Assembly: GCA_964533515.1 (NCBI GenBank)
Contig: CAZHMB010000004.1
Coordinates: forward strand, 1 to 45,062
From: Candidatus Woesearchaeota archaeon
Lineage (GTDB): Archaea; Nanobdellota; Nanobdellia; Pacearchaeales; GW2011-AR1
DNA: 45,062 bases
Reading direction: 5' to 3'
This document shows positions 9,907-31,163 of this stretch, piece after piece; position 1 is the first letter of the stretch, and every line of letters begins with the position of its first letter. The notes beneath the pieces were generated by a model. That model was not told the origin of the DNA. It searched no databases and worked only from the letters and a program-made list of their open reading frames with translations. The translations under genes were made by a program, and so were the position numbers.

Positions 9907-10032
9907 ATGGAGCTCAAGATAATTAAATTTCAGAACTTCCAAGTTTGTGCGATTTCTCAGAAGGCCATTAGAAATCGTTTAACCGCAAAGGAAGGGAAGG
10001 TACTAGGAAACCGCTTAGGTTTCCTCGAATAA
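9907..10032 (+). repeat. Dispersed hairpin element copy A; also a 41-aa ORF filling the arsR-iscS gap
   Basis: Stem GCGATTTCT(9949-9957)/AGAAATCGT(9970-9978) with loop CAGAAGGCCATT; block taaccgcaaaggaagggaaggt; stem AGGAAACC/GGTTTCCT (10005-10025). ORF reads MELKIIKFQNFQVCAISQKAIRNRLTAKEGKVLGNRLGFLE*. Confidence 0.8.
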
Positions 10033-10033
10033 G

Positions 10034-11197
10034 ATGCAAAAACAAATCTACTTAGACAATGCTTCTACAACCCCTATTGATTCGCAAGTTCTGAAAGCAA
10101 TGCAACCTTATCTTACCTCAAAATATGGAAATGCTTCAAGCCAACATGCAAAAGGAAGAGAAGCAAAAGAAGCTTTAGAAAAGTCCAGAAAAATTATTGC
10201 AAAATCCATCGGAGCGAAGTCATCTGAAATCTATTTCACATCGGGAGGAACAGAAAGCAACAACTGGACGACTAAAGGATTATTTTTTAAACAAAAAGAA
10301 TTGCAAACAGGCAAGAACCATATTATAACAACAAAGATTGAACATGATTGTGTTTTGAATTCATGTAAATGGCTTGAGAAAACACAAGCAGCAAAAGTCA
10401 CCTATTTAGATGTTAATAGCGAAGGTTTTATTGATTTACAACAATTAAAGGATTCAATAACAGATAAAACTTTTCTTGTTTCGATAATTCACGGGAACAA
10501 CGAGATCGGAACAATCCAAGATTTGAAAGAAATCGGAAAGATCTGCAGGGAGAAAAAAGTCTTGTTTCACATAGATGCCTGCCAGAGTTATACAAAAACA
10601 GAAGTTAATGTTAAAAAACAAAATCTGGATTTAATAACTTTAAATGCCCATAAAATTCATGGGCCGAAAGGTGTTGGAGTTTTATACATTAGAAAAGGAA
10701 TCCAAATTACTCCTTTACAACACGGTGGAGGCCACGAATCGGGTTTGCGTTCCGGAACAGAAAGCATCTCGGGAATTGTTGGTTTTGCTGAGGCCGTTAA
10801 GATTTCTAACAATAAGGACATAAAAAAAATGAAACAACTTCAAGAAAAAATGATAAATGAAATTTTAAAAATCCCAAATACAAAAATAAATGGTCCAATT
10901 CCTGGAGAAAAAAGACTTTGTAATAATATCAACATCTGTTTTTCAAATATAGAAGGAGAATCAATTGGGGGCTATCTTGAAAGAGAAAATATTTTCACAT
11001 CAACCGGCTCCGCCTGTTCATCGCATGCTCTTGAACCCAGCCACGTTTTAACGGCGATAGGAAGAAGCCACATTGAAACAAATAGTTCAATAAGAGTTTC
11101 AATAAGCAAGTTCACAACAGAAGAAGATATAAGCAAATTCCTAAATCTTCTACCCAAAGTTGTAAATAAATTGAGAAGGCTGAGCCCCTTTGCATGA
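10034..11197 (+). CDS. iscS: Cysteine desulfurase (IscS/NifS)
   Basis: IYLDNASTT, FTSGGTESNN, NNEIGTIQ, AHKIHGPKG (PLP lysine) and STGSACSS (catalytic Cys). Confidence 0.96.
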   Translation: MQKQIYLDNASTTPIDSQVLKAMQPYLTSKYGNASSQHAKGREAKEALEKSRKIIAKSIGAKSSEIYFTSGGTESNNWTTKGLFFKQKELQTGKNHIITTKIEHDCVLNSCKWLEKTQAAKVTYLDVNSEGFIDLQQLKDSITDKTFLVSIIHGNNEIGTIQDLKEIGKICREKKVLFHIDACQSYTKTEVNVKKQNLDLITLNAHKIHGPKGVGVLYIRKGIQITPLQHGGGHESGLRSGTESISGIVGFAEAVKISNNKDIKKMKQLQEKMINEILKIPNTKINGPIPGEKRLCNNINICFSNIEGESIGGYLERENIFTSTGSACSSHALEPSHVLTAIGRSHIETNSSIRVSISKFTTEEDISKFLNLLPKVVNKLRRLSPFA

Positions 11198-11204
11198 ACT
11201 AAAA

Positions 11205-11411
11205 ATGAAAAAAATAACCCCAAAAACAAAGATATCTGAGGCTTTAGAAATGAAAGGGGACGCAGGCGCAGAAATTTTAATGAACTCCGGAATGGGTTGC
11301 GTTTTTTGTCCGATGGCCCAACAAGAAAGTTTAGAAGGGGGTTGCCTCGCTCATGGAATGTCCAAGAAAGATGTTGAAAAAATAGTTGAGGGGTTGAATA
11401 AGTTGAAATGA
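11205..11411 (+). CDS. DUF1858-like small Cys redox / Fe-S associated protein
   Basis: GMGCVFCPMAQQESLEGGCLAHG motif. ATG 11205 preferred over the TTG at 11190. Confidence 0.8.
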   Translation: MKKITPKTKISEALEMKGDAGAEILMNSGMGCVFCPMAQQESLEGGCLAHGMSKKDVEKIVEGLNKLK

Positions 11412-12310
11412 ACTTTAAACAAAAATTTGAGCCGAAAGATGATAAAGTAATTCATGGGGCGGGCCAAAGCATAGAAAGATTCAAAGATTATTGGAATGCT
11501 GTTGGAAAGAATAAGCCCCTCATCTACATGATGTACATAAGAATAAATGAGATTAAAGAAAAACTTCCAAAGAAGTTCAAAGATATGGAAAATTTTAATA
11601 GAAATCTAATCCCTCAGATAGGATTAAATTTTAAGATTAGATCAAAAGGCTCGCAAGTGAAAGAAATTGCCGAGGGACAATATGATCAACACATTGGTGA
11701 TCTATGTGACGTTTTCTCAAAATTCAAAAAACCGATTTTTTTGCGTATAGGTTATGAATTCGATAAAGAAGGGAAATATGATCCAGAGTATTTTCGAAAA
11801 GCATGGAAATACCTGGTCGGCATTATTAGAAAAAAAGGGATCACAAATGTGGCGACAGTTTGGTGTGCCTGCCCTTACAATGGAACTTCACCAGTCGAAC
11901 CATATTATCCCGGTGACAATTATGTTGATTGGTTTGGAATAGATGTTTTTGGTGTTAGACATTTTGAAAAACTATACCCCCCTGTAGAGGGTTTTTTGGA
12001 ATTGGCAAAAAAACATAAGAAACCTGTGATGATAGGGGAATCAAGTGCAATAAGTTCTAGAAGAGAAAATAAAGATGATTGGAAAGAATGGTTTGTTCCA
12101 TATTTTGATTGGATAAAGAAACACCCTGTGATAAAAGCATTTTGCTATATCAATTGGGATTGGGGAGTTGATTGGAAACAACCAGAATGGGGAAACGCAA
12201 GAATAGATAATAAAACAGAACTATTACAGGAATATAAAAAAGAGTTATCTAAAAAGAGTTATCTTCAGAATATTCCCCTAAATAAATTTTTAGAAGAGGT
12301 TAATCTTTAA
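11408..12310 (+). CDS. Glycoside hydrolase family 26-like (mannanase/glucanase)
   Basis: IFLRIGYEFD (acid/base Glu), YYPGDNYVDWFGIDVF and KPVMIGES (nucleophile Glu). Confidence 0.85.
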   Translation: MNFKQKFEPKDDKVIHGAGQSIERFKDYWNAVGKNKPLIYMMYIRINEIKEKLPKKFKDMENFNRNLIPQIGLNFKIRSKGSQVKEIAEGQYDQHIGDLCDVFSKFKKPIFLRIGYEFDKEGKYDPEYFRKAWKYLVGIIRKKGITNVATVWCACPYNGTSPVEPYYPGDNYVDWFGIDVFGVRHFEKLYPPVEGFLELAKKHKKPVMIGESSAISSRRENKDDWKEWFVPYFDWIKKHPVIKAFCYINWDWGVDWKQPEWGNARIDNKTELLQEYKKELSKKSYLQNIPLNKFLEEVNL

Positions 12311-12311
12311 A

Positions 12312-12632
12312 ATGATGCCGAATCTAGAAAATCTAAACTTAGGAAATAAAGAGATTTACATAAAAGCATTTAAAGATTTAATAAATAAAATAAAGAACAA
12401 CCAAGAGATTCAAGAAGAAAAGGATTTCATAATCAAAGACGAGGAGATAAAAGGAGAAAGAATTTTGACAATTGTCCCAAATGAATTATTAAATCAATAT
12501 ACTAATTTCAGAAACGAATACCCCGAAGAATTCCTTGGATTTTCAGTTGTTGTCAAAGGTTTACGTTTGTCATGTTTTGGTGTTCCTTGCGAAGAATTAA
12601 GTAAATGTGTTGTTGGGGGGATTAAAAATTAA
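12312..12632 (+). CDS. Hypothetical protein
   Basis: 106-aa ORF tightly coupled to both neighbours. Confidence 0.65.
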   Translation: MMPNLENLNLGNKEIYIKAFKDLINKIKNNQEIQEEKDFIIKDEEIKGERILTIVPNELLNQYTNFRNEYPEEFLGFSVVVKGLRLSCFGVPCEELSKCVVGGIKN

Positions 12633-13189
12633 TGGTAAGAAAAGGATTTGTTTCATTAGAAAAATATGGTTTCATAATTAATCAGAGAACGAGAAAAGAT
12701 TGGGCAAGTTCTAAAAAAATTTGGACTAGGAAGAAAGTTGCAGATGCTTTAGTTCAAGCCAAAAACCTGTTGCCCCCAGGATTTAATCTTTTGATTTTGG
12801 ATGGAAAGAGATCCATTGAGGATCAAAGGAGAATAATCAAGATTTGCGAAAAAGATTTTAAGAATAGGGATCCTCAAAATTGGAGACAAATGCTAAAGGA
12901 CTTTACCGGCGGTTATGAAATACTAAAACAAAGAAAATTCTCTCCAATGAGTCATCTTGGAGGGGGCGCAGTTGATTTAACTATTGTAGATGACAGAGGT
13001 AAGGAGTTGGATATGGGTGGAGATACATTTGATGAAAGAGAGGCCTTAAATTACTATGAAAAAAAGAAAAGACTCAGCAAGAGAGAGAAAGAGATTAAAG
13101 AAAACCGTAGACTCCTAAAGAAGGTTATGGTTAAAGCAGGTTTTAAGCCATATCCAAAAGAATGGATTCATTGGGGGTATAAAAAATGA
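12632..13189 (+). CDS. D-Ala-D-Ala dipeptidase (VanX/DdpX, peptidase M15)
   Basis: ILDGKRS, SHLGGGAVDLT (SxHxxxxAxD-like), LDMGG and EWIHW (ExxH). Confidence 0.85.
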   Translation: MVRKGFVSLEKYGFIINQRTRKDWASSKKIWTRKKVADALVQAKNLLPPGFNLLILDGKRSIEDQRRIIKICEKDFKNRDPQNWRQMLKDFTGGYEILKQRKFSPMSHLGGGAVDLTIVDDRGKELDMGGDTFDEREALNYYEKKKRLSKREKEIKENRRLLKKVMVKAGFKPYPKEWIHWGYKK

Positions 13190-13668
13190 CCTACATTCTC
13201 CCGTTCAAGAAACACCCCGTGAAAATCGGTCAAGGTTTTAATACTGGAAGTCACAAAAAATGGCCTGAAGACAAAGAGGACATGACTTACTCTGTAGATT
13301 TTCTTTTAAGACAAGGAACAAGAATAATCGCTTCTCGCGAAGGAAAAATTGTTAAAGTTAAGACCAACGGGAAGAAAAACTATTCTGGAAAGAATCCAAA
13401 AAAAGGGGAAAAAGCTTACAAGGAACACATGAATGAAATAGTAATCAAACATAAAGATGGAACTTATGCAGCTTATTCGCACTTGAAAAATCAAAAACCA
13501 AGAGTGAAGCTCGGACAAATTATCAAGCAAGGACAAGTTATTGGATTAAGTGGAAATACGGGTTGGTCCTCAAAACCACATTTAGATTTTAATATCTTCA
13601 AGAAGAATATCGGAAACTGGAAAATAAAGACAATTAAAATTAAATTTGAAGATTATAAATTGAAATGA
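13186..13668 (+). CDS. Peptidase M23 family protein (no signal peptide evident)
   Basis: SH...YSVDF, GTRIIASREGKI, YSHL and GQVIGLSGNTGWSSKPHLDF. Confidence 0.88.
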   Translation: MTYILPFKKHPVKIGQGFNTGSHKKWPEDKEDMTYSVDFLLRQGTRIIASREGKIVKVKTNGKKNYSGKNPKKGEKAYKEHMNEIVIKHKDGTYAAYSHLKNQKPRVKLGQIIKQGQVIGLSGNTGWSSKPHLDFNIFKKNIGNWKIKTIKIKFEDYKLK

Positions 13669-14057
13669 CCCCCCAACCATTTGGCTACACAAAAGAACTC
13701 CTGAAACATTTTCAAAATCCAAAATATGTCAAAAAATTAAAGGACCCTGATGCTATTGGGGAAATAGGGAATATAAAATGCGGAGATGTCATGCGCCTTG
13801 GAATCAAAGTTGATAAAAAAACAAACAAAATCTCGGATATCGGTTTCCAAACATTTGGCTGTCCAGCAGCGGTCGCCAGTAGCGACGTTGTTTGCGAACT
13901 TGCAAAAGGAAAAACATTGGACCAAGCAAAGAAACTTTCAAAGAATGATATCGTGAAAAAACTGGGTGGAATGCCTCCGATAAAAATTCATTGTTCAATT
14001 CTTGGAATTGAAGCGTTAAACAAAGCTATAAAAAGCTACGAGGACAAAAATAAATAA
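13665..14057 (+). CDS. iscU: Fe-S cluster scaffold IscU/NifU
   Basis: HFQNP, GNIKCGDVM, FQTFGCPAAVASS and MPPIKIHCS. Confidence 0.95.
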   Translation: MTPQPFGYTKELLKHFQNPKYVKKLKDPDAIGEIGNIKCGDVMRLGIKVDKKTNKISDIGFQTFGCPAAVASSDVVCELAKGKTLDQAKKLSKNDIVKKLGGMPPIKIHCSILGIEALNKAIKSYEDKNK

Positions 14058-14058
14058 A

Positions 14059-14299
14059 ATGAAATTCAATAAATTAAATTTGGAAATCCTTGAATTTGTG
14101 CGACTTGGAAGAAGGCAAATGAAAAGTCGCTTACTCGTGCCCTTCAGGGTAACCGCAAAGGAAGGGAAGGTGCGAGAGTTTACGCGAGATTTTATCCTAA
14201 AAGTAAATTTAAAAAACCCGAGCGTGGGCTCGAGGTTAGGAAACCGTTTATGCCCTTTCCTCTGGACCTACTTGGCAGGGTACTTAGGTTTCTTCGAAT
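14059..14299 (+). repeat. Dispersed hairpin element copy B (expanded); carries ORF 14059-14310 bridging iscU to the next gene
   Basis: Stem GCGACTT(14100-14106)/AAGTCGC(14124-14130) with a GAAGGC loop. Shares taaccgcaaaggaagggaaggt and taggaaaccg...cttaggtttc with copy A. Contains nested TGCCCT...AGGGTA hairpins. Confidence 0.8.
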
Positions 14300-14776
14300 A
14301 TGGAAAATAAATATGCGGGTTGGCTAGTTGTAGGAATCTCTGTAATAATGGCCGTATTCGTGGGAATTTTTAATTACACTTTGAAAAATCTTGTTGGAGA
14401 GACCTGTACTCACGGAGCAACGTGTTCAATGTACGACACCATAGCAATTCAGACATGGATTTCCTTAGCCGTTGTTGCTGTTATCTTAGTTATAGGAATT
14501 GTAATTATGTTCACAAAACCAAAAGAAAGAATCATCATAAGAACAAAAAAGCAACAGATCAAAAAAATAGACAAATCCAAATTAGATTCCAAAGAGAAAC
14601 AAGTTGTTGAAATTTTGGAAAGAGAAAATGGGGCAATATTTCAAAAAACATTGATGGAAGAACTTGGAATTGGAAAAGTTGGTATAACCCGTCTGCTTGA
14701 CAAACTCGAAGCTAAACAGATTCTCGAAAGAAAAAGGCGAGGAATGAATAATATTGTTGTTCTAAAAAGAGATTAA
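14300..14776 (+). CDS. Membrane-anchored wHTH (MarR-like) regulator with two TM helices and a Cys/His loop
   Basis: TM - CTHGATCSM - TM, then LDSKEKQVVEIL...GAIFQKTLMEELGIGKVGITRLLDKLEAKQILERKRRGMNNIV. Confidence 0.8.
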   Translation: MENKYAGWLVVGISVIMAVFVGIFNYTLKNLVGETCTHGATCSMYDTIAIQTWISLAVVAVILVIGIVIMFTKPKERIIIRTKKQQIKKIDKSKLDSKEKQVVEILERENGAIFQKTLMEELGIGKVGITRLLDKLEAKQILERKRRGMNNIVVLKRD

Positions 14777-14783
14777 AAAATAA

Positions 14784-16958
14784 TCAATTGTAATAATCTA
14801 AAAATCTATTATTAATAACTCCCCCAGTCATTGAACCCCCACCCCCAGAACTCTCGCTAATATCTTCTTCGCCACCATTTTCATCGCCGTCTGATCCAGA
14901 ATCGTCTTCTGAATCTCTTGAAGAATCATCCGTGCTTGAATCTTCATCTGAACTCGAATCTTCATCATTAGAATCATCAGCTTCATCATCACCAGGGCTC
15001 TCGCCTTCGCTATATTCTGGTTCATCTGATTCGTAATAACATTCACAGCCACCAGATCCACAGCCAGTTCCTCTCAACCTCTGACCTGAACGACTTTCAC
15101 ATTGACTTTGACAATCATCACATTCGGCACCACCGCCCTCTCCTCCAGATTGACCTTCTTCAGGTTCTCCGCCCCAAGAATAACATTTACAATTTCCCCC
15201 AGAAAAGTCCCACGCTTGTTCTTTCTCTTCGCACTCAGAAGCACATTCCTTCTCTTCCTTTTTTATTTCATCCCAGTCTTCTTCATAGTTACCAACACCT
15301 GTAGCAGCACCATCGTAGCAGTCTAGTCTTTCAAGTGGATCTTCGATTTCTTTACAACCAAAGTTCACACCCTGGCCATACTTTTCAGGTTTCTCGTTTC
15401 CTCCCCCTTCCATAAATTTCTTGCAATCTCTATAATCATGTATTTGATTTTCCTTACATTCCTCTGGACGGTTTTCGATATTCCACATAAAATCTTTACA
15501 TTCTTCAGAATCAGTTATCCCTTGCTCTGCGCATTCTGGAGCATGTTGTTGCATCATAATATCATCACAGATCTTTCGTCCTTCAGATTCACTTTGAACA
15601 TCCGCTTCAAGCAAAGCTTCTTTACATTCTTCAGGAGCATGGGCCGTTACCATAATTTTACTACATTCTTCAGGAGTTGTAGCTCCCGCTTCTTCACATT
15701 CAGAAGGCATGTGTAAATCATATTTCTCCTCCATCATTCCAGAATCAAGTTCATCCATAATTTCTTGCAGATGCGGAGGTAACCCGGGCATTTCCAAATT
15801 ATCTAACGCCTCGCATGCAGCTTCGTCTTCATTAACATCACAAGCAGTTGCTAAAGGTGCTGCCTCAGTACAAGCCTCTGCAAAATCGGGATAAGGAATG
15901 TCCTGACAAGCACAATCTTGCCCTGAAGTTTTAAAACATTGCTTCATTATGCCCGCAAATTTCTTTGCCTCCTCCTTTTGTTCTTTAGTCAATTCTTTAT
16001 GCAATCTTTTTTGCCAGTCAGCAGAATCATCACCGGCCTTACATACAGAATAATATTCATTTGGATCCAACTCAGATAAACTTCTACAAAGTTCTTTAAT
16101 CTTTGAAGAGATCTCAATAGCGGTTATAAGACTTCCCTCGCTGTCAATTATATCCTCATAAAACTCCTCTTGATCCTCTTCTGGGATTTTGTCTTTAATC
16201 TCCTTTAACATTTTTTGAATTCCCGCGGCCGCTCTTCTTGCCTCTTCCCTTTTATCGGGATCTGGATCTTCTGAAAATTTCTCAGCGTATTCTTTATATT
16301 TCAACAGGGCTTTTCTAGCAGAATCGTAATCTCCCTTTTCTATCATAGCGTGAACCTCTGCTATTTTTTCTTCCCTGCTATCTCCGAAAAGGCCATCAAG
16401 AAAATAAAAAAAACTGTCGGGGGTTATTCCAGGGTCGATGTCTTCTTCATCAGCATATTCCTCCTCTAGCTCATCAAAGGTATCACCGTATTTATATTTA
16501 CAACCTTCCCAAGTGGTATCAGCAGTACAAGTTTCACCTTCACAATAGCTAGGACCACCCCATATACTTAAACAATCTTCTGCATTCTCACAATCTTCTT
16601 GAGTCATATCCTCACAAAAGTAATCAATATCATCTTCAAGCTTCAAATCTTCACAATCCCATCCACATTCACAGTCAGGATATTCTCCGGAAACAATTTT
16701 TCCAGCATCTTTACAACCGGGCGTTGAAACACTAAAAAAATCCAGACAGGTTTCATCACAGCTTTTATCTTGAAAACCATAGTTCTCTTTACAGCTTTGT
16801 ATGCACGGACTTTTGCAAGTTTCATTATTCCCACAATCTGCCTTACAGCCGGAGACACATTTGTCCAATTCGTTTTCACTCTCTTCAGCAATCACAAATC
16901 CAGATATTAAAATAAGAGAAACTAACAAAAAACCAACAAATACTAAACCTCTTTTCAT
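14784..16958 (-). CDS. Large acidic Cys-rich secreted protein with a PGITPDS (DUF5667-like) motif and internal repeats
   Basis: Signal peptide; PGITPDSFFYFLD; PxEC...C repeats; D/S/E-rich low-complexity tail ending MTGGVINNRFLDYYN. Confidence 0.8.
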   Translation of the reverse strand: MKRGLVFVGFLLVSLILISGFVIAEESENELDKCVSGCKADCGNNETCKSPCIQSCKENYGFQDKSCDETCLDFFSVSTPGCKDAGKIVSGEYPDCECGWDCEDLKLEDDIDYFCEDMTQEDCENAEDCLSIWGGPSYCEGETCTADTTWEGCKYKYGDTFDELEEEYADEEDIDPGITPDSFFYFLDGLFGDSREEKIAEVHAMIEKGDYDSARKALLKYKEYAEKFSEDPDPDKREEARRAAAGIQKMLKEIKDKIPEEDQEEFYEDIIDSEGSLITAIEISSKIKELCRSLSELDPNEYYSVCKAGDDSADWQKRLHKELTKEQKEEAKKFAGIMKQCFKTSGQDCACQDIPYPDFAEACTEAAPLATACDVNEDEAACEALDNLEMPGLPPHLQEIMDELDSGMMEEKYDLHMPSECEEAGATTPEECSKIMVTAHAPEECKEALLEADVQSESEGRKICDDIMMQQHAPECAEQGITDSEECKDFMWNIENRPEECKENQIHDYRDCKKFMEGGGNEKPEKYGQGVNFGCKEIEDPLERLDCYDGAATGVGNYEEDWDEIKKEEKECASECEEKEQAWDFSGGNCKCYSWGGEPEEGQSGGEGGGAECDDCQSQCESRSGQRLRGTGCGSGGCECYYESDEPEYSEGESPGDDEADDSNDEDSSSDEDSSTDDSSRDSEDDSGSDGDENGGEEDISESSGGGGSMTGGVINNRFLDYYN

Positions 16959-17002
16959 AATTTGTTTAGAAGAAAGGGCTTTATAAGTTTTTTGTAAATT
17001 CT

Positions 17003-17109
17003 TAGGTTTCCTATGCGATTCTCCAGGAGGCTATTAAGAATCGCCCTCTCGTGCCCTATAGGGTATCCGTATTTCGAGGAGGGTAGAAGGGAACCCGGGG
17101 GTTCCCTTC
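17003..17109 (+). repeat. Dispersed hairpin element copy C
   Basis: GCGATTCT(17015-17022)/AGAATCGC(17037-17044) with a GGAGGC loop; ctcgTGCCCT-at-AGGGTA; terminal stem GAAGGGAACC/GGTTCCCTTC (17086-17109). Confidence 0.8.
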
Positions 17110-17111
17110 AT

Positions 17112-17141
17112 GAAACTAGTTTCTCCAAACCGCATATATAA
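17112..17141 (+). promoter_or_regulatory. Palindrome plus TATA upstream of the copper locus
   Basis: Perfect palindrome GAAACTAGTTTC (17112-17123), then catatataa about 25 nt before ATG 17162. Confidence 0.4.
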
Positions 17142-17161
17142 TACCTTTTTCTAGTTCTTTC

Positions 17162-18673
17162 ATGAAAAAGATATTCAAAATAAAAGGCATGCATTGCAAC
17201 TCATGTTCGGACAGAATTGAAAAGACTCTAAAAGATAAAGTAAATAAAATTTCTGCTAGCTATTCAAAAGAGGAAGCAGAAATAGATTTCAATCCAGAAA
17301 AAATTTCAGAAGCAGAAATAAAAAAAATTATCGAAGAAGAAGGATATTCTGTTGAAGCAGAAGAAACTCCTGTTGAAGGCGAAAAAAAATCCCATGAAAA
17401 AGAAAACAAAGATAACCAAGATAAACCCAAGAACAAAACAGATTGGATCGGTTGGACAGTATTAATCGGGAGTTGCGCTATTTTACTTTACATTGTCTAT
17501 ACAATGTTTCTTTCAAAGTACGATTTAAGTATTCCGGTATCAGGTGAAGGCGCAAGTTTATTCTTATTATTCTTCGTTGGAGTTTTAACAGGATTCCATT
17601 GTATTTCAATGTGCGGGGGTTTTGTCGTATCCTACACAACAAAAAACGCAATCAATGGCCACAAGAGTTTCAAACAACATTTAGTTTACGGGGGGGCAAA
17701 AGTCTTTTCATACGCTTTCTTCGGAGCAATATTTGGTTTAATCGGGGGGGTGTTTGCATTCAGCGTAGGTCTAAGAGGGATTATAGCAATAGTTGCTGGG
17801 GTGTTCATGATTTTCTACTCATTAAGTATGTTAGGTATTGGTTTCTTCAGAAGATTTCAATTTAATCCAAAATTTTTAAGTAAGATCGCCTCGAAAAAAC
17901 ACACCGGGCCTTACAAAGGTCCTTTTTTAACGGGCTTATTCGGGGGTTTGTTCATCGCTTGCGGCCCTTTACAAGCAATGTATCTCTATGCAATGGGAAC
18001 CGGGAACGCAATCATGGGCGCTTTATCTTTAGGAGCATTCGGCTTAGGCACTCTTCCAGTTATGCTCGGATTCGGGAGTTTAACGACAGTCATAAGCCAC
18101 AAATCAACAAGAAAAATCTTGAAAATAGCCGCGATATTAGTTTTAATCCTGGGCCTTGTTATGCTCAACAGAGGTCTAACAGTAATGGGAAGTTCAGTAA
18201 CTTATGACACTATAAAAGATAAGATAATCGGAGTTGAAAGCGCCGCAGTTCTTATGGAGGGCGGATACCAAATAATAAATATGGAAGTAAACAGATACGG
18301 CTGGGAGCCAGATTCTTTCGTTTTGAAAAAAGGCGTCCCGGCGAAATGGAACATAGATGTCAAGGAATTAACTGGCTGTAACAATGAGATAATCGTCAGA
18401 GATTATAATATAGAGATCAAACTGGAAAAAGGCTTAAACGTTGTTGAGTTTACTCCCACTGAAACGGGAACAGTGCGATGGAGTTGTTGGATGGGAATGA
18501 TTCCCGGAAGTTTTATTGTTACTGAAGACGGTTCTGCTAGCCAGGAACAAATCTCCCAAGTTGAAGCCTCAAACGTGGGCGGAAGCTGTAGTAGCGGAGC
18601 AGATGGCGGGAGTTGTGGAAGTCCAACCTGCGGAAGCACAACGGGCACCGGGGGCTGCGGTTGCGGGGGATAG
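17162..18673 (+). CDS. HMA + DsbD/TauE-like membrane domain + cupredoxin-like heavy-metal protein
   Basis: GMHCNSC (HMA), GFHCISMCGG, ACGPLQAM, FGLGTLP, GCNNEI and WSCWMGMIPG; Cys/Gly tail. Confidence 0.88.
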   Translation: MKKIFKIKGMHCNSCSDRIEKTLKDKVNKISASYSKEEAEIDFNPEKISEAEIKKIIEEEGYSVEAEETPVEGEKKSHEKENKDNQDKPKNKTDWIGWTVLIGSCAILLYIVYTMFLSKYDLSIPVSGEGASLFLLFFVGVLTGFHCISMCGGFVVSYTTKNAINGHKSFKQHLVYGGAKVFSYAFFGAIFGLIGGVFAFSVGLRGIIAIVAGVFMIFYSLSMLGIGFFRRFQFNPKFLSKIASKKHTGPYKGPFLTGLFGGLFIACGPLQAMYLYAMGTGNAIMGALSLGAFGLGTLPVMLGFGSLTTVISHKSTRKILKIAAILVLILGLVMLNRGLTVMGSSVTYDTIKDKIIGVESAAVLMEGGYQIINMEVNRYGWEPDSFVLKKGVPAKWNIDVKELTGCNNEIIVRDYNIEIKLEKGLNVVEFTPTETGTVRWSCWMGMIPGSFIVTEDGSASQEQISQVEASNVGGSCSSGADGGSCGSPTCGSTTGTGGCGCGG

Positions 18674-22473: not shown

Positions 22474-22686
22474 ATGAGTTCAAAATATAATTTGATCGAA
22501 CATACAAGGGAAACATTAGCAAGGCTGGGCCCTTTTGATGAAGAACAAAGGGAAAGCTTTGCAGAGACGACAGAATTTAGAGAGATATATCGCTACCTGA
22601 GGCCTTTTAGCAGAACTCAAGCAGAGGCCTTATTTGGGGCGGAATATTACTGGGTCATGTCTATGGGCAAGCAACTAAATTTATAA
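22474..22686 (+). CDS. Hypothetical protein
   Basis: 70-aa ORF with no recognisable motif. Confidence 0.5.
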   Translation: MSSKYNLIEHTRETLARLGPFDEEQRESFAETTEFREIYRYLRPFSRTQAEALFGAEYYWVMSMGKQLNL

Positions 22687-22714
22687 ATAAACAAAACAAA
22701 CAATAGTTAACAAG

Positions 22715-25519: not shown

Positions 25520-25604
25520 ATTTACCTTGCTTGAGTACTCATATAAGTTCACCCTTTTACCATAATAAACTTTAAAAAGGAGTTTGACTAAATAGATACA
25601 TAAA

Positions 25605-26408
25605 ATGATAGTACAAGATGAATTTTTGAGCAGATTAAGAAAGATTTTTAATTTGAATTTATATGAGGTGAAAGTTTGGACGGCGCTTCTTTCTCGGGGA
25701 ACTTCAACTGCCGGAGAATTAAGTAACATCAGCGACGTTCCGAGATCAAGAACTTATGATATTCTAGAGAGTTTAGAGAAGAAAGGTTTCATTGTGATGA
25801 AGTTAGGAAAGCCAATAAAGTTTGTAGCTCTTAAACCAGAAGAAGTTGTTGAAAGAGTTAAGAAGAATTTGATGAAGTCCGCGCAAGATAGATCAAAGAG
25901 ACTTGAGAAACTTAAAGGCGACGAAGTTTTAGAAGAACTTAATACGTTATTTACCAAAGGAATAAAGTTCGTAGAACCAACAGAACTTTCCGGAAGTATG
26001 AAAGGAAGACAGAACATCTACAATCATTTAGACATGATGGTTCGTGACGCAGAAAAGACAATTACAATTGTAACAACAGCAGAAGGTCTTAACAGAAAAA
26101 TGGAATCTCTTCTTCCAAGTTTGGAAAAAGCAAAAAAGAGAGGAATTATAGTAAGAATCGCTGCTCCGATAGATAAGAATAATATGAAAGTTGCGAAAGA
26201 TTTCCAAAAAGTTGCAGAGGTTAAGAATATGCAGAAGATAAAAGCGAGATTTACAATCATAGACAGCAACCAATTGATGTTCATGCTTCTTGATGACGAA
26301 AAGTTCCATCCCAACTACGACGTTGGAGTTTGGATTAACACCGAATTCTTTGCTCAAGCATTAGAACAGATGTTTGAGTTGGCTTGGAAAGACATGAAAA
26401 AGATTTGA
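25605..26408 (+). CDS. TrmB family transcriptional regulator
   Basis: LNLYEVKVWTALL...TAGELSNISDVPRSRTYDILESLEKKGF; C-terminal TrmB effector domain. Confidence 0.93.
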   Translation: MIVQDEFLSRLRKIFNLNLYEVKVWTALLSRGTSTAGELSNISDVPRSRTYDILESLEKKGFIVMKLGKPIKFVALKPEEVVERVKKNLMKSAQDRSKRLEKLKGDEVLEELNTLFTKGIKFVEPTELSGSMKGRQNIYNHLDMMVRDAEKTITIVTTAEGLNRKMESLLPSLEKAKKRGIIVRIAAPIDKNNMKVAKDFQKVAEVKNMQKIKARFTIIDSNQLMFMLLDDEKFHPNYDVGVWINTEFFAQALEQMFELAWKDMKKI

Positions 26409-26419
26409 AATAATAAAAA

Positions 26420-26623
26420 ATGGAAGAACTAGATAAAAAGGTGAAAAATTTTGATACATGGGATATTGCTCTGACAAAGCTTGCCGTTGCAGCAGGAGTT
26501 TTATTTATTATCGGAATCTGGCCCGCAGCAAGAAATTGGGCATTCACAATTAATCCTTGGTGGTTTTTAGTTGCAGCAGTCGTGTTTGCAATCCGGCCAA
26601 TGATTAGATTTTTCAAGAAGTGA
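26420..26623 (+). CDS. Small two-TM membrane protein
   Basis: WDIALTKL...WWFLV...IRP; two hydrophobic segments. Confidence 0.7.
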   Translation: MEELDKKVKNFDTWDIALTKLAVAAGVLFIIGIWPAARNWAFTINPWWFLVAAVVFAIRPMIRFFKK

Positions 26624-26628
26624 TTTTT

Positions 26629-27180
26629 CTATATCAACCCAAAAACAACAACCCAGAAAAAGAAAACAACAAGGTGCCTTATCAATCTAACGATTAAAGT
26701 TTCAATAAACATATGTCTTGGGCTCATCCTGAAAACACCAGCGATTGTCGGAAGATAAGGAATCGGGCTCACCGCCATGATGACCATCGCCCATAGACCA
26801 TATTTCTTAAAAAGATCTTCATATTTTTTAACATCTTTTTTATCAAAATATCTCAAAATTTTCTTTCCAGAAAAATAACCCAAGTAATAATAAAAGAAAT
26901 TACCCAATATTGCTGACAACAAGAATAAAGACAGCAACAACCAAATATTAAAACCCCCCATAGCCATCAAACTTGCAACAGCAACGCTTCCACCAACAAA
27001 AACCGGAGCTCCCTCGAGTATGAATACAATTAAGACCATGGCTATCAATCCGCCAACCTGCACAGCTCCAACAACCTCATTTTCAAGAAATTTATAATTA
27101 ACGAGACTCCAAACTAATAGCAGTATCACAATTATATTCACAAGCCACAAGATTCCCTTAATCAACTTCTTTTTGTCCAT
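26629..27180 (-). CDS. DedA/VTT family membrane protein
   Basis: SAILGNFFYYYLGYFSG, LFKKYG, SPIPY and AGVFRM patterns. Confidence 0.85.
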   Translation of the reverse strand: MDKKKLIKGILWLVNIIVILLLVWSLVNYKFLENEVVGAVQVGGLIAMVLIVFILEGAPVFVGGSVAVASLMAMGGFNIWLLLSLFLLSAILGNFFYYYLGYFSGKKILRYFDKKDVKKYEDLFKKYGLWAMVIMAVSPIPYLPTIAGVFRMSPRHMFIETLIVRLIRHLVVFFFWVVVFGLI

Positions 27181-27213
27181 TGGAACTTAACGATAAAGGA
27201 ATTTTTAAAGTTT

Positions 27214-27332
27214 GAGTTTCTCTAATTTCGGGAGGTGTTTAATTAGTGAGGGGTTGTCGCATTACTTCGTGATATTTAGCTGAAACGAAGTTTCAGAGAT
27301 TTATAATAAATTTTTCCCCGCCTCAGAGACTC
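27214..27332 (+). repeat. Multibranch hairpin element E with a GGAGG loop (distant relative of copies A-D)
   Basis: Closing stem GAGTTTC/GAGACTC; CTAATT-tcgGGAGGtgttt-AATTAG; TGAGG/CCTCA; CTGAAAC/GTTTCAG. Confidence 0.55.
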
Positions 27333-27340
27333 GCAATTAG

Positions 27341-27958
27341 TCAAAATCTTTGATTTTGATATTTATTTTTTCTTCTCAAAATATCACTATACAACCCTTC
27401 ATGACCAATTCTCTTCATCTCAGCAATAGCAGCCCTTCCACTAAGAATCTTTCCTAATTCTGGAACACAAGCTAGATTAACTCTTGTATTAAGATTGTAA
27501 TCACATCCCAAATAATCATCAATCTCATGTACTTCTAATTCTTCCCCCTCTTCTCCTCTTAAAAAGATCTCTAGTCCACTAAAAGGTTTTGGAATAACAG
27601 AGATATCATTAAAAATATATTCGTCGCCATTATACCCTGCTGGCTCAAGCTTTCTTTTTCCAATATCTCTTGGTGTTGCAGCTCTAAAATGCCTGTCACG
27701 TTCGTAAATAAAACTAGAATCAGAGCCTGTACAAACTCTTAAGTTGGCATCTTCAAAAGGAAGGACTCCCAACTTAAACAAGTAAATTCTGCTAAAATTT
27801 GCATTCTCTTGTTGTAATGGGTTATCAGAAACTACAATTCTCATATAAGGAGGATTCATTTTTTTCACAGCTTCGCGTTTAGAATTAGAAATATAAGCAG
27901 TATCACTATGAAAATTTGTCCATCCTTTTACTAAATAAACATGTTTTCCTTTTTCCAT
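27341..27958 (-). CDS. Hypothetical protein
   Basis: 205-aa ORF with its own TATA upstream; no recognisable motif. Confidence 0.65.
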   Translation of the reverse strand: MEKGKHVYLVKGWTNFHSDTAYISNSKREAVKKMNPPYMRIVVSDNPLQQENANFSRIYLFKLGVLPFEDANLRVCTGSDSSFIYERDRHFRAATPRDIGKRKLEPAGYNGDEYIFNDISVIPKPFSGLEIFLRGEEGEELEVHEIDDYLGCDYNLNTRVNLACVPELGKILSGRAAIAEMKRIGHEGLYSDILRRKNKYQNQRF

Positions 27959-27992
27959 TTTATTTATTCCTTTAGAATAGTAATAGAATTAG

Positions 27993-28023
27993 TATATATT
28001 AAACTTTTACCGACAATTGTCGG
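27993..28023 (-). promoter_or_regulatory. Palindromic operator immediately upstream of BRE/TATA
   Basis: Perfect 14-bp palindrome CCGACAATTGTCGG (28010-28023); on the minus strand it is followed by taaaagTTTAATATA. Confidence 0.6.
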
Positions 28024-28037
28024 ATTTTTACTAAGAA

Positions 28038-28688
28038 TCAGAGTTCTTTATAGATCGAAGGAATAATCTTACCTTCTGCTGTTTTCAAATGTTGCTGATA
28101 AGTAGAATAAGAAATTTTCATTATTTTTGCTAATTTTTCCATCTTTACTTTCTTTGGATAGTCATAATAACCCTGATTAATTGCTATTTCCATCGCCTGT
28201 TTCTGTTTGACAGATAATTTAGGCAATAATCTAGTTATTGAAATATTTGAAATCTTCTCCTCTTTCAATTTCAATAATTCTGCTCCAAGATATTTTTCTG
28301 AGAATTTCAAAATATCTTCCAATATCTTCCTATCAAAACTAGCCAAATCCCAAATGTGTTTTTTTTCTTTACAATTTATTATTGTTGGAGAAGGTCTAAT
28401 TATTCTAGGATCCCAAACAGGTTCTGTGAATAGTGGCTGTTTTGTGACTAAAACTGCAAAATCATTCTTTATTTCCAATTTGACTAATTCCGGTTGTTTC
28501 TTTGCATCTTTAACTAATGATTTTTTATTTTTCTCTTCTCCAAACATAAATCCACAAGTTATCAAATAAAGCCATTTGTTATCTTTATAATAAGAAAGAG
28601 GATAACCAGTCATAGAAACTTTATGTTTAATTGCCATTCTTCCAAGAAACTGATTCTTAGATTCAACTTTTAATTTCATTATCCACAT
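28038..28688 (-). CDS. Bacterio-opsin activator-type (HTH_10) transcription factor
   Basis: C-terminal LSVKQKQAMEIAINQGYYDYPKKVKMEKLAKIMKISYSTYQQHLKTAEGKI. Confidence 0.9.
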   Translation of the reverse strand: MWIMKLKVESKNQFLGRMAIKHKVSMTGYPLSYYKDNKWLYLITCGFMFGEEKNKKSLVKDAKKQPELVKLEIKNDFAVLVTKQPLFTEPVWDPRIIRPSPTIINCKEKKHIWDLASFDRKILEDILKFSEKYLGAELLKLKEEKISNISITRLLPKLSVKQKQAMEIAINQGYYDYPKKVKMEKLAKIMKISYSTYQQHLKTAEGKIIPSIYKEL

Positions 28689-28771
28689 AGATATAATAAC
28701 GCAATAGTTCCTATAAATATCTTTCTAAATAAAATCTTCTTTTTTAGAAAAAGAAGCAAAAGCGACAACCC

Positions 28772-29641
28772 TTAAAGTTTGAGTTTCCTCAATCTCTTCT
28801 CAGTTTTTACTTCAAAAATTTCCAATCTTTTTTCCTTGGCATCTTTTTTACCTTTTGTGAAATTCATTGCCTGAAATTTCAAAAGCCTAAATGGGAATTT
28901 ATACTTTTTTGAAAGTTTCAGATAATCTTTAAAATCTAATCCTGATTTTTTCTTGCCTGAAATATCTGAAAAAATCCCCGGATTTCCTATCGCAGATCTC
29001 CCGACCATAACATAATCAAATTTTTTCAAAAGTTCTTTGTAATTCTTTTCACCAACATTACCAGAATAAACAACTGGAAGTTTTGTCTTATCCCTAAGTT
29101 TCTCAGCAAATTTCTCTTCCGGAATTCCAGAATAGCCTTGCTGTTGTGTTCGCGGATGAACAATTATAGCATCACAATATTTTTCTACGAGTTTCAAGAT
29201 CTTCTTAGCGTAAGCAGATTTCCTAATCTTTACAAAAACAGCTTTTTTCTTTCCGGCGGCTTTCCGAATTTCTTTTAATATTTCTTCGATTGTTTTTAAT
29301 TCGGAAATCATGTAACTTCCAAAACCATGTTTTCTCGCCGTTGTCGCAGGACAACCTAAATTAAAATCCCAACCAGAAACTTTTTTATTGTGTTTTTTAA
29401 CAAATTCTTTAATTCCCTCCGGAGTTTTGCAAAACAATTGACAAATCGGCTTGTCATCAAAATAAGTCTTCTGCTTCGTTCGAGGATGCGTCATGCCAGT
29501 CCAAGTCAAAGAACAACCAGCTTTCTTACACATCAATCTAAAAGCAACATCATTGACTTCTTCCATGGGCGCAAGGAAAACCCGATCTTTCAACGCTTTC
29601 CCAAGTTTCAAGTTTTTTATTGGTCTGAATTTCATATCCAT
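28772..29641 (-). CDS. tRNA-dihydrouridine synthase (Dus family)
   Basis: LAPM, DFNLGCP, VKIR, VHPRT, YSGNV and VMVGRSAIGNP. Confidence 0.92.
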   Translation of the reverse strand: MDMKFRPIKNLKLGKALKDRVFLAPMEEVNDVAFRLMCKKAGCSLTWTGMTHPRTKQKTYFDDKPICQLFCKTPEGIKEFVKKHNKKVSGWDFNLGCPATTARKHGFGSYMISELKTIEEILKEIRKAAGKKKAVFVKIRKSAYAKKILKLVEKYCDAIIVHPRTQQQGYSGIPEEKFAEKLRDKTKLPVVYSGNVGEKNYKELLKKFDYVMVGRSAIGNPGIFSDISGKKKSGLDFKDYLKLSKKYKFPFRLLKFQAMNFTKGKKDAKEKRLEIFEVKTEKRLRKLKL

Positions 29642-29703
29642 CTAAGAATAAAAACAATTAAAAGCCTTGTTGTTTTTATCTTATTGTCAAAAGGGGAATC
29701 AAA

Positions 29704-29846
29704 ATGAACATTCAAGAAATTAAATTAACTCGCGCAAAGTTCAAAGGCACAGAATTTCTTATGCGACATCCTTCGGAGGCAATTAAAGATGTCGCCCTTC
29801 AGTGTTTCGAGGAGAGAGCGCGACAGAAATCAAGGGGTTCTTTCGC
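29704..29846 (+). repeat. Dispersed hairpin element copy D; carries a 52-aa ORF (29704-29862) overlapping the HerA start
   Basis: GCGACATC(29763-29770)/GATGTCGC(29788-29795) with a GGAGGC loop; tttcgaggag shared with copy C; 5' end atgaacattcaagaaattaaatt resembles copies A and B. Confidence 0.75.
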
Positions 29847-31163
29847 ATGTACGACGTTGTAATCGGAAGAAACAAACCAGATAAATTAGCATTAAAAGAA
29901 AAAGGCCTAATCAGCATAGGCAAGGGCTATGTAAAAATGGGCCAATATACTTCTTTAAGCAACAGGATACTTATGGATATAGCAAGGACACATGTCATTC
30001 TAGTAGCCGGGAAAAGAGGTTCAGGAAAATCTTACACCCTCGGAGTTCTCGCTGAAGAACTAACGAACCTTCCAAAAGAAACAAGCCAAAATATAGCTTC
30101 TATAATCTTCGATACAATGGGAATTTATTGGACAATGAAATACAAAAATGAAAAAGACAAAACTCTTTTGGCAGATTGGGATTTAAAATCAAAAGAATTG
30201 CCTGTGAAAATATTTGCCCCCTTTGGACATTATGAAAATTACACCCAACAAGGAATCCCCGTAGATGAAAAATTCGCTTTAGACCCGAGTGAACTTAATG
30301 CTGGGGATTGGTTGATAACTTTCGGATTAGGTTTAACAGATCCAATTTCTGTAATAATTGAGAGAACAATAACAAGATTAAGAGAAAAAGGGGAGTTTAA
30401 CCTAGATGATATAATAAAAAATATCCAAGAGGATGAGACAACAAGTCAAGAAATAAAAAATGCGGGAATTGGTTTATTCGAATCAGCAAAAACTTGGGGG
30501 ATCTTCGCTATCGATTCAGAAGATTCAACAAAAGTTAAAGACCTAATCAACGCAGGAACAACAACAGTTTTAGATTTAAGTGTCTACAATTCTGTCGGAG
30601 CTTTGAATATACGGGCACTTGTTATTAATCTGGTCTCAAGAAAAATTTTCAACTCCAGGATGGCTGCAAGAAAATCAGAAGAGATAAAATCTGTCTCAGC
30701 AGGATTGGATTATCTTTCTTCGATGTCTTCGACAAAAAAGCAAGACCCTCTTGTTTGGATTTTTATAGATGAAGCACATGAATTTCTTCCTTTGAATGGA
30801 AAAACGGCAGCAACCGACGCCCTTGTCCAATTGTTAAGAGAAGGTCGTCAGCCGGGAATTTCTCTTGTTCTTGCAACACAACAGCCGGGACAAATTCATA
30901 GGGACGTCATGACACAATCAGATATTGTAATCAGCCACAGAGTAACAAACCATTACGATTTAGAAGCCCTAAATTTCATAATGCAGAGTTACGTTTTTGA
31001 AGGGTTAAAAAAATACATGGATGAACTTCCAGGACTTAAAGGAAGTGCAATTGTCTTAGATGACAACAGTGAAAGGATTTATCCAATACGAATTCGTCCA
31101 AGATTCACTTGGCACGGAGGTGAAGCACCGACAGCCGTTAAGATAGAAAAAAGTTTAGATTGA
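29847..31163 (+). CDS. HerA/FtsK-like (DUF87) ATPase
   Basis: Walker A GKRGSGKS, Walker B IFIDEAH, LREGRQPG and ATQQP. ATG 29847 preferred over GTG 29802, which lies inside the hairpin element. Confidence 0.9.
   Translation: MYDVVIGRNKPDKLALKEKGLISIGKGYVKMGQYTSLSNRILMDIARTHVILVAGKRGSGKSYTLGVLAEELTNLPKETSQNIASIIFDTMGIYWTMKYKNEKDKTLLADWDLKSKELPVKIFAPFGHYENYTQQGIPVDEKFALDPSELNAGDWLITFGLGLTDPISVIIERTITRLREKGEFNLDDIIKNIQEDETTSQEIKNAGIGLFESAKTWGIFAIDSEDSTKVKDLINAGTTTVLDLSVYNSVGALNIRALVINLVSRKIFNSRMAARKSEEIKSVSAGLDYLSSMSSTKKQDPLVWIFIDEAHEFLPLNGKTAATDALVQLLREGRQPGISLVLATQQPGQIHRDVMTQSDIVISHRVTNHYDLEALNFIMQSYVFEGLKKYMDELPGLKGSAIVLDDNSERIYPIRIRPRFTWHGGEAPTAVKIEKSLD

Follow-up and report, generated by a model that had tools for sequence, protein, structure and literature searches.

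The window analysed here is contig CAZHMB010000004.1 (C4 below) of assembly GCA_964533515.1, a stretch of 45,062 nt from a Candidatus Woesearchaeota archaeon whose genome (G000; 763 kb, 70 contigs, 34.7% G+C, 85.7% complete) is the genome under study. Between positions 9,907 and 29,846 the contig carries four copies, A to D, of a small element with a core of three consecutive hairpins (P1, P2 and P3). They lie upstream of genes including those for a cysteine desulfurase (copy A), an HMA/DsbD-like protein (copy C) and a HerA-like ATPase (copy D) (Table 1). A previous reading of the letters (the sequence-only reading) had described these four copies with their stems and loops, and all four were found where it had placed them. 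We analysed the element throughout G000 and in its relatives, and conclude that A to D probably belong to a lineage-restricted family of small non-autonomous mobile elements, selfish in nature and surviving at harmless sites. The host lineage of the element is one family of the Nanoarchaeota (Pace-/Woesearchaeota-type DPANN archaea).

The copies had been described as standing directly upstream of a gene. This holds for A, B and D, but 45 nt separate copy C from the gene that follows it. The proposed mosaic of downstream modules is real: copies A and B share a 22-nt block, a GTGCCCT..AGGGTA hairpin is common to copies B and C, and TTTCGAGGAG is common to copies C and D. The terminal hairpin of copy D had been taken as degenerate; it is instead a distinct P3 subtype, with GGGGT in its loop, 8 nt 5' of the ATG of the gene. 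Units A, B and D each begin at an ATG, and the coordinates first given to them coincide with small open reading frames (ORFs). The whole of copy A can be read as an upstream ORF of 41 codons (9907-10032), copy B is open throughout as an ORF of 83 codons (14059-14310), and the 52-codon ORF of copy D (29704-29862) stops 13 nt beyond the ATG of the gene. A near-identical long relative of copy B is present at C2:13714-13930 in G000. The 12 nt that abut copy C on its 5' side come from the 3' arm of another copy and are a nested or tandem remnant, and the same junction recurs in a tandem pair on C2. As the sequence-only reading had noted, no mobilising enzyme is encoded here: none of the 42 window ORFs scanned was a transposase, an integrase or a reverse transcriptase (RT). 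A tRNA/tmRNA search of the window was also negative.

Table 1. Copies of the element in the window, their parts and the genes beside them
Feature	Coordinates	Strand	Remarks
Copy A (subtype I), whole inserted unit	9907-10033	+	model match 9947-10033, E 2.7e-14
Copy A, upstream ATG and 39-nt A/T-rich 5' extension	9907-9948		
Copy A, P1	9949-9978		arms 9949-9957/9970-9978; loop 9958-9969
Copy A, P2	~9979-9997		
Copy A, block shared with copy B	9980-10001		22 nt, 100% identical to 14150-14171
Copy A, P3	10005-10025		
Copy A, tail	10026-10033		
Cysteine desulfurase gene	10034-11197	+	Pfam Aminotran_5, E 2.4e-86; ATG directly 3' of copy A
Copy B (long form of subtype I)	14059-14299	+	ATG of next gene at 14300
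Copy B, ATG and 5' extension			homologous to the extension of copy A
Copy B, P1	14100-14130		arms 14100-14106/14124-14130
Copy B, extra hairpin	14137-14152		
Copy B, block shared with copy A	14150-14171		followed by an insert of ~65 nt
Copy B, P3 arms	14238-14245 and 14287-14294		around hairpin 14251-14282
Fragment, 3' arm of a subtype I copy	17001-17012	+	12-nt exact match to 10014-10025; abuts copy C
Copy C (subtype II with extra hairpin)	17013-17117	+	model match, E 2.0e-15
Copy C, P1	17015-17044		arms 17015-17022/17037-17044
Copy C, inner hairpin	17050-17065		
Copy C, P3	17087-17108		
HMA/DsbD-like gene	starts 17162	+	family scan; 45 nt 3' of copy C
Copy D (subtype III), whole inserted unit	29704-29846	+	covariance-model match
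Copy D, upstream ATG and 56-nt extension			
Copy D, P1	29763-29795		arms 29763-29770/29788-29795
Copy D, P3	29820-29846		arms 29820-29828/29838-29846
HerA-like ATPase gene	29847-31163	+	Pfam DUF87/HerA; ATG abuts copy D

Copies were detected in G000 by BLAST, nhmmer and a covariance model built from 17 copies. This search, which the sequence-only reading had proposed for the genome and its relatives, revealed many further copies: G000 holds about 23, of which 22 are model matches at E<=0.01 and one is a long copy on C5 (E 0.4) recognised by eye. The genomes counted in this work are drafts, 61-98% complete. Among 61 genomes (60 relatives and G000) 12 had a match, comprising nine of the 36 genomes of the same family and single matches in two other families of the order. 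In a class-wide sample the element was present in 4 of 17 further genomes of the same family and in none of 133 from other families. In total, 13 of the 53 family genomes sampled carry the element and the other 40 do not. The same-genus relative of G000 (G001) has one weak match, a copy upstream of its GINS gene. The exact P1 pattern was present in 98 metagenome stretches; two P1 patterns gave no match in viral contigs, and there was no blastn match in plasmid and phage collections. Tandem copies occur on C2 and in metagenome contigs, such as the three and two head-to-tail copies of L240:139-383 and L209:166-332 respectively.

The core of the element measures about 85 nt, full units 125-145 nt and the modular long forms up to about 250 nt, with extra hairpins inserted in the loops of P2, P3 or P1. 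The purine-rich P1 loop is conserved, with GGAGGCAATT in most copies. Its two commonest forms, GGAGGC and AAGGTG, resemble a Shine-Dalgarno (SD) sequence, and the variant of one relative (G022) does not. P2 and P3 distinguish three subtypes (I to III). When 17 copies were aligned with MAFFT, 88.4% of the cells were paired, compared to 38-58% when the partners were slid, and 24 cells had changed on both sides (8.2 ± 2.5 in shuffles, 0 of 500 reaching it). The same was seen with 67 copies from 11 genomes, in an alignment made to the model and biased towards the structure: 86.5% of the cells were paired (40-63% when slid), changes on both sides occurred at 22 of the 23 pairs, and there were 216 such cells vs. 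69 ± 11 in shuffles (0/500). The compensatory stem changes first noted by eye in the window thus go beyond chance. Pairing in the 67 copies was 93.6% for P1 and 87.4% for P3 and only 72.6% for P2; RNAalifold recovered P1 and P3 and not P2, and the covariation signal sits in P1 and P3, being weak in P2.

The further claim that these changes imply selection on RNA structure was not specifically supported. G·U and A·C cells were equally rare (16 vs. 23 in P1, 16 vs. 19 in P3), a pattern that differs from the usual signature of a functional RNA made from one strand. Since G·U is no commoner than A·C and copies function in either orientation, it seems that both strands need to pair. Stop codons are depleted on both strands as well, with 1.26 open frames per copy in the sense and 1.06 in the antisense direction compared to 0.54 ± 0.07 in shuffles, a test that is generous because the copies share ancestry. 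Rfam contained no described family for the element: nothing reached the gathering score in the window, and nothing matched the copies at E<=10 (9500-30200) or at E<=0.1 (seven copy-bearing loci).

Orthologous sites without the element were examined, as the sequence-only reading had suggested, and clean empty sites were found at A and D in G001. At site A the genes for an ArsR-like protein and the cysteine desulfurase overlap by four bases (ATGA) in G001, with no element, while in G000 they are 126-127 nt apart and the insert lies between near-identical 7-nt strings, each with a stop and an ATG. The spacer at site D is 59 nt in G001 and 188 nt in G000; the insert takes up the interval between the position of the resident start codon and the ATG of the gene, directly adjoining both. 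Among 80 orthologous herA-like loci of other species, a single one is immediately preceded by an element, which belongs to a different subtype. Likewise, the same genes in different genomes (S3Ae, PheT, SMC, herA and GINS) carry copies of different subfamilies. In a tree of 67 copies (86 columns, only the strong branches being informative), copies from the same gene of different genomes stay apart: 11 label changes are required for the 16 rows at 6 loci, and the members of the subtype III clade (99% support) come from four genomes.

The target-site duplications that had also been proposed as a check are present, and they are long, variable and of no fixed length. Of 135 copies, 17 are flanked by exact direct repeats of 12 nt or longer, compared to 1 of 135 with mismatched flanks; the 17 include several that are tandem arrays or represent the GINS site of different genomes. 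Their lengths are about 0-3 nt (tRNA copies and copy D), 7 nt (copy A), 15-22, 28 and 31-40 nt, and two of them span the ATG and the first codons of the gene. The downstream repeat begins at the 3' end of the element, and 0-29 nt of unrelated filler lie between the upstream repeat and P1. Contigs of four DNA runs were compared with positions 9880-29870 and none bridged an empty site; their breaks fall in repeats and their joints are other copies. The idea that the copies form an undescribed mobile palindromic family, of the kind of the REP sequences (repetitive extragenic palindromes) or the MITEs (miniature transposable elements with inverted repeats), is therefore supported by the further copies, the patchy distribution, the empty sites, the duplications and the absence of an Rfam match. 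A different arrangement was observed at C24:3869-3955 of G000 (L002), where a copy lies at the 3' end of a 390-aa gene and the last ~10 codons and the stop are found on both sides of it; the two versions of this gene end have three synonymous differences and different stop codons.

Gene starts are the main context of the element. Of 70 genomic copies, 32 have the ATG of an ORF of 40 codons or more at -7 to +6 nt of the match end, at least two of these being doubtful. An SD core of at least 4 nt is present at -16 to -8 in 22 of these 32 copies, and most of the others have GGGGT or GGGT there. The motif lies in the loop and 3' arm of P3, 7-11 nt before the ATG. As regards a possible promoter within the element, the region -30 to -23 before the junction is GC-rich by eye in subtypes I and III of G000. 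The sequence-only reading had offered a cis-regulatory RNA displaying an SD-like loop as an alternative: a correctly spaced SD-like motif does exist, but it belongs to P3 and not to the P1 loop, and the genes are not a conserved regulon because the element family is missing from the closest relative. The proteins encoded behind the copies, named from their N-termini and partly by Pfam, include S3Ae, L37Ae, L44e, L24e, S10, S12, EF-1alpha, EF-1beta, SRP54, Spt5, TBP, PheT, SMC, RFC, RNase HII, Hjc and the HerA-like protein. At least 13 copies are read through by an ORF whose ATG is located 0-57 nt before the model match and whose stop falls no more than 4 nt before or 19 nt after the ATG of the gene. 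At A and D this upstream ATG occupies the place of the ancestral start codon, and in two metagenome copies it belongs to a duplicated copy of the gene's own start. Metagenome contigs provided 75 distinct copies, 69 of them scorable (uncut by a contig end). There was an ATG-ORF at the junction in 21 of these (in one case merely the next tandem copy), a same-strand tRNA +1 at the offset of the ATG in four, an antisense position in a tRNA intron in five, a tail-to-tail junction with a tRNA 3' end in two and with a 16S 3' end in one. The remaining 36 were classed as 'other', which by eye includes more tRNA and GINS cases and G000's own copies.

Three copies of G000 lie in frame and open within ORFs, namely those of Cbf5, an ERCC4 nuclease and a RIO-type kinase. 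The N-terminus of Cbf5 is extended by 35 residues, including an 18-nt duplication; none of 12 relatives has this insert, and the alignment of the G001 N-terminus continues across the gap. In the XPF/Hef-like nuclease the ERCC4 domain is interrupted, with a net gain of 25 aa that is absent from all 11 informative relatives. The copy in the kinase ORF is read through at the N-terminus. Cbf5 (C25:2850-3995) has a second insertion of 44 low-complexity residues (222-265) between the TruB core and the C-terminal part, which is absent from the relatives whose matches span the region and contains no element copy. The copy upstream of the GINS gene (Gins51) is antisense, and this arrangement was observed in at least four genomes: G000 (C37, L011), G001, G006 and G028. 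Its flanking duplication comprises 31-40 nt of the first codons of the gene, with 0-1 mismatch within a genome and divergence between genomes. The filler holds a ribosome site and an inverted copy of the first 8-9 bases of the repeat, which covary; the resulting 8-9-bp helix would enclose the ribosome site and the start codon. The GINS copy may have been taken over by the host as an exapted translational control.

Other copies interrupt tRNA genes. ARAGORN called 31 tRNAs in G000, 13 with introns, and two of these introns hold the element antisense to the tRNA: tRNA-Lys(CUU) (99 nt) and tRNA-Val(GAC) (93 nt). The latter (C12:10166-10333, L008) was labelled tRNA-Phe(GAA) with an intron at 35/36 by ARAGORN, and its intronless orthologues identify it as tRNA-Val(GAC). 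The orthologues were intronless in all the relatives compared (G001, G002 and G003 for tRNA-Lys; G002, G003 and G009 for tRNA-Val). Relatives have three more intron copies, antisense in tRNA-Lys(UUU) and tRNA-Asp(GUC) and sense in tRNA-Ile(UAU); a gene called tRNA-Ser in G015 reads by eye as tRNA-Ile(UAU). In total, at least 10 copies lie in anticodon-loop introns, including five in metagenome contigs, and the insertion site is at or beside position 37/38, where archaeal bulge-helix-bulge (BHB) introns interrupt tRNAs. The fold of tRNA-Lys has a helix next to the anticodon stem, formed between the anticodon loop and the filler that adjoins the element. For tRNA-Val, the only helix beside the stem lies within the intron and the anticodon loop is unpaired, and the canonical 3-nt/4-bp/3-nt BHB motif was not seen in either fold. 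A splicing endonuclease gene is present. Both tRNAs are the sole bearers of their anticodons among the 31 ARAGORN tRNAs, and therefore must presumably be spliced if the cell is to decode those codons. A further intron, of 258 nt at 32/33 in a tRNA-Thr(UGU) called by ARAGORN at C61:978-1310 of G000, contains a G+C-rich insert that looks highly structured.

Copies in reverse orientation abut the tRNA discriminator base and the 16S 3' end. We considered that leaderless tRNA transcription might be forced by loss of RNase P, and rejected this explanation, since RNase P RNA was detected in 21 of 25 lineage genomes (though not in G000, 85.7% complete). With this RNA in the lineage, a tRNA leader should be tolerable whatever its length, and selection alone then fails to explain the exact abutment of copies to tRNAs. 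The copies in tRNA introns and inside coding sequences go beyond what the sequence-only reading had described.

These results suggest how the element might persist. It would spread within genomes, with selection, and perhaps the insertion mechanism too, directing copies to harmless places. At a gene start the 3' end lies flush with the first base of the product, either the ATG of a protein or the +1 of a tRNA. The element parts the resident ribosome site and ATG from the coding sequence and supplies a replacement SD-like motif, while the old start opens a short ORF through the stop-poor element, ending within ~20 nt of the ATG of the gene. Ribosomes on this short ORF would unfold the element and reach the real start, and the gene would be restarted by the ribosome site of the element, by translational coupling or by both. 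Within a coding sequence the element would be translated in frame, in the fashion of the Rickettsia palindromic elements. In an anticodon loop, the element and a short filler pairing with that loop form a new intron that would have to be taken out. The mobilising machinery probably recognises the hairpins and the conserved P1 loop on either strand, and the hairpins may be kept because this machinery, or an insertion intermediate, needs them.

Several results weigh against a family of mobile elements. No mobilising enzyme was found; the survey across genomes covered the Y1 transposase and RT families. Y1 (PF01797) gave no match in G000 (85.7% complete), G009, G011, G022 or G028; its occurrence (4 of 9 element-bearing genomes, 12 of 52 others) did not correlate with that of the element, and no element copy adjoined any of the four Y1 loci examined (including those of G006 and G021). 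A Y1 transposase was consequently rejected as partner. RT genes were found in 7 of 9 element-bearing genomes and in 13 of 52 others, a suggestive co-occurrence among relatives that are not independent; however, no element copy adjoins an RT gene, and G001, with four RT hits, is nearly devoid of elements. Terminal inverted repeats and a target duplication of fixed length are both lacking, and the element is thus no textbook MITE. The same genes carry it in several genera, many of them serving translation or replication, and the GINS copy is kept in at least four genomes, all of which could reflect a host function. Moreover, the exact abutment to tRNA +1 and to tRNA and 16S 3' ends is unexplained by selection alone. 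Finally, the copies are related to one another; the metagenome copies were picked by the exact P1 pattern and overlap the genomic set.

The host function just mentioned could take the form of a cis-regulatory 5' leader, a regulon RNA motif with a protein, the ribosome or a small molecule as its binding partner, which controls the translation of information-processing genes, the other copies being decayed or incidental. The enrichment of downstream genes for ribosomal proteins, EF-1alpha/beta, SRP54, Spt5, TBP, PheT, SMC, RFC and GINS would fit, as would the presence of the element at the same genes in 2-4 genera, the conserved P1 loop (SD-like in its two commonest forms), the correctly spaced SD-like motif of P3 and the strong covariation. 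We nevertheless consider it unlikely, given that G001 lacks the element except at GINS, with sites A, D, Cbf5, ERCC4 and tRNA-Lys all empty, and that 40 of the 53 family genomes do without it. The single herA orthologue among 80 and the different subfamilies at orthologous genes point the same way. Copies are also antisense (in tRNA introns and upstream of GINS), in frame within ORFs, between convergent genes or in tandem, the G022 loop is not SD-like, and G·U is no commoner than A·C, unlike in functional RNAs. The alternative that the units are small protein-coding genes of 41-83 codons with incidental hairpins draws on the complete ORFs of A, B and D, on similar peptides read from one frame in many copies and on the depletion of stops. 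We rejected it as hardly credible: near-identical copies fall into different frames when their loops differ by 1 nt, both strands are poor in stops, stem changes are compensatory, and copies are antisense in tRNA introns.

The junctions raise the question of how copies arrive. The 3' end meets an ATG and a tRNA +1 at one and the same offset. Such exactness, combined with a 5' filler that varies and duplications that are long and variable, resembles by analogy target-primed or template-switching reverse transcription at RNA ends. In a retroelement of this kind, comparable to a short interspersed nuclear element (SINE), the RNA 3' end would be copied by an RT and the cDNA joined at natural RNA ends (5' of leaderless mRNAs and tRNAs, 3' of tRNAs and 16S, tRNA halves), tRNA introns being a by-product. 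A precise 3' junction, a variable 5' junction (filler of 7-40 nt) and duplications of variable length are indeed what the element displays; the reverse-orientation copies at the discriminator base and the 16S 3' end, the co-occurrence with RT genes and the T-run that comes after P3 in many relatives, reminiscent of an archaeal RNA 3' end, also agree with it. Still, this origin seems quite unlikely. The stems show no excess of G·U over A·C, no CCA was seen at the tRNA tail-to-tail junctions read, and G001 combines RT hits with almost no elements. In compact genomes selection too can push survivors to gene boundaries. The RT of G000 (470 aa, in the locus L073:4885-8181 of C22) is only weakly group II-like: its best match is the group II RT model, at 153 bits compared to a cut-off of 300, which leaves it unclassified, and it lies beside two paralogous genes as in a diversity-generating retroelement. 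Every copy might otherwise be a BHB intron, cut by the splicing endonuclease from mRNAs, tRNAs and rRNA precursors and invisible at the RNA level. The intron copies in tRNAs, the presence of the endonuclease, the helix between intron and anticodon beside the anticodon stem of tRNA-Lys, and a flank-flank helix closing several non-tRNA copies (C37, C24:3869 and C2:32660) speak for it. We regard it as very unlikely, since no closing helix is present at the in-frame Cbf5 and ERCC4 copies or at A and D, the three ORF-embedded copies are all in frame and open, which is needless if they are spliced, and the canonical 3-4-3 motif was not seen even in the tRNA folds.

The mobile-element reading can be taken one step further, and here we are tentative. 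The family would then be the first visible donor family for the gain of archaeal tRNA introns: a structure-dependent element whose 3' end becomes attached, by way of an RNA or single-strand intermediate, to natural RNA ends or to transcription start and stop points (leaderless start codon, tRNA +1, discriminator base, 16S 3' end, anticodon loop), and which serves also as a portable translation-start module. This extension is possible but doubtful at present.

In its way of working, the family is closest to the Rickettsia palindromic elements and to repeats of the MITE/REP type, although the defining features of MITEs, REP/RAYT (REP-associated tyrosine transposase) and IS200/IS605 derivatives were not found. 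The Rickettsia palindromic elements, according to PMC10969869, are small non-autonomous hairpin repeats with no known transposase, open for translation and found both in intergenic positions and in frame within housekeeping genes that are unrelated. Cbf5 and ERCC4 show the same situation, that is, an in-frame, stop-free insertion in a conserved gene whose orthologues lack it. The two differ in host domain, and no sequence relation is seen or expected. The DPANN family, moreover, has three separate hairpins, lies mainly at gene starts with a ribosome-site motif of its own, is flanked by long variable duplications and enters tRNA anticodon loops.

With MITEs, REP sequences and bacterial interspersed mosaic elements (BIMEs), Correia, ERIC and BOX repeats it shares a short, structured, modular and multicopy nature, a patchy distribution and the ability that such repeats have to alter the expression of neighbours. 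Archaeal MITEs are known, according to PMC10969869, from Sulfolobus, Halobacterium, Haloquadratum and Desulfurococcus. The family is short, multicopy and non-coding, with presence and absence among relatives, as classical MITEs are. It differs in that the ends of the 17-copy consensus are not reverse complements, the inverted repeats being internal (P1, P2 and P3), and in the lack of a target duplication of fixed length. A parent insertion sequence was not found, as judged by the absence of a transposase from the window and of model matches beside the four Y1 loci. Three other known classes were considered and discarded. REP/RAYT systems consist of 20-40-nt palindromes and a Y1 gene, whereas here the unit is a three-hairpin structure of ~85 nt and G000 has no PF01797. 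The palindrome-associated transposable elements (PATEs) derived from IS200/IS605, which go with a TnpA-Y1 gene, have like hairpins at their two ends and make no target duplication, do not fit either: G000 has no Y1, P1 and P3 differ in sequence, and the flanking repeats are long. An integron attC site, which is one imperfect hairpin with R/L boxes in cassette arrays beside an integron integrase, is contradicted by the three hairpins, the position beside core genes (ribosomal proteins, EF-1alpha, tRNAs) and the lack of an integrase in the window; a weak tyrosine-recombinase-like ORF on another contig was the sole trace of such an enzyme.

Fungal mitochondrial genomes harbour GC clusters, 'byp' and double-hairpin elements, which are small hairpins kept by compensatory change that invade spacers, introns and coding regions. 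They belong to another genetic system, and nothing in the DPANN family shows translational bypassing. For tRNA introns there are two closer parallels. Recurrent intron families of the Thermoproteales ('intron transposition'), according to a 2026 preprint (bioRxiv 10.64898/2026.10.13.758758), comprise related introns in different tRNA genes, which implies gain by copying. In contrast, the DPANN copies lie mostly outside tRNA genes (gene starts, ORFs and spacers), and the donor pool is thus visible; its intron copies are mostly antisense to the tRNA, and the orthologues of relatives are intronless. The tRNA-disruption model of Caldiarchaeum, as outlined in PMC3293823, ties intron gain to mobile DNA, with direct repeats of a gene end flanking the insert. 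Its insert is 1.9 kb long with a recombinase gene and att-like tRNA repeats, whereas here it is 90-125 nt without a gene. A literature search, which did not cover supplements, found no described DPANN repeat or mobile intron of this kind.

The route by which archaeal tRNA introns arrive is stated as open in the 2026 preprint (bioRxiv 10.64898/2026.10.13.758758). In the present case, one repeat family supplies new anticodon-loop insertions in several tRNAs with intronless orthologues, while the majority of its copies are located elsewhere than in tRNA genes. Since the donor, the recipient and the empty site are all available, intron gain is open to study. The family also indicates how selfish DNA can persist in a gene-dense genome of 0.8 Mb, by means of a ribosome-site motif, stop avoidance on both strands and landing at gene boundaries. 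For annotation it is a hazard, since it creates spurious small ORFs, misplaces start codons, causes tRNAs to be miscalled and breaks contigs in DPANN genome bins. An undescribed mode of mobility in archaea would be indicated if the junctions at RNA ends reflect the mechanism; and if the family is indeed a donor joined to RNA ends, it would represent a new kind of prokaryotic mobile element and a mechanism for the origin of BHB introns.

Some other features were observed in the same genome. The two paralogous genes beside the RT of G000 (263 and 270 aa) have no family match and similar C-terminal ends, and the L073 locus looks like a diversity-generating retroelement. Contig C22 also carries a tyrosine-recombinase-like ORF (2361-3686; weak, E 0.001) and two element copies. 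In the window, an isoleucyl-tRNA-synthetase-like gene at 22715-25519 has a class I catalytic domain match over residues 13-624 for a profile of 414 positions, which suggests large insertions. At 37773-42970 a type IIG restriction-modification fusion (Eco57I/MmeI-like, 916 aa), a PD-(D/E)XK Cas4-like nuclease and a phage-type metallopeptidase are clustered, and this region may be a defence or mobile islet.

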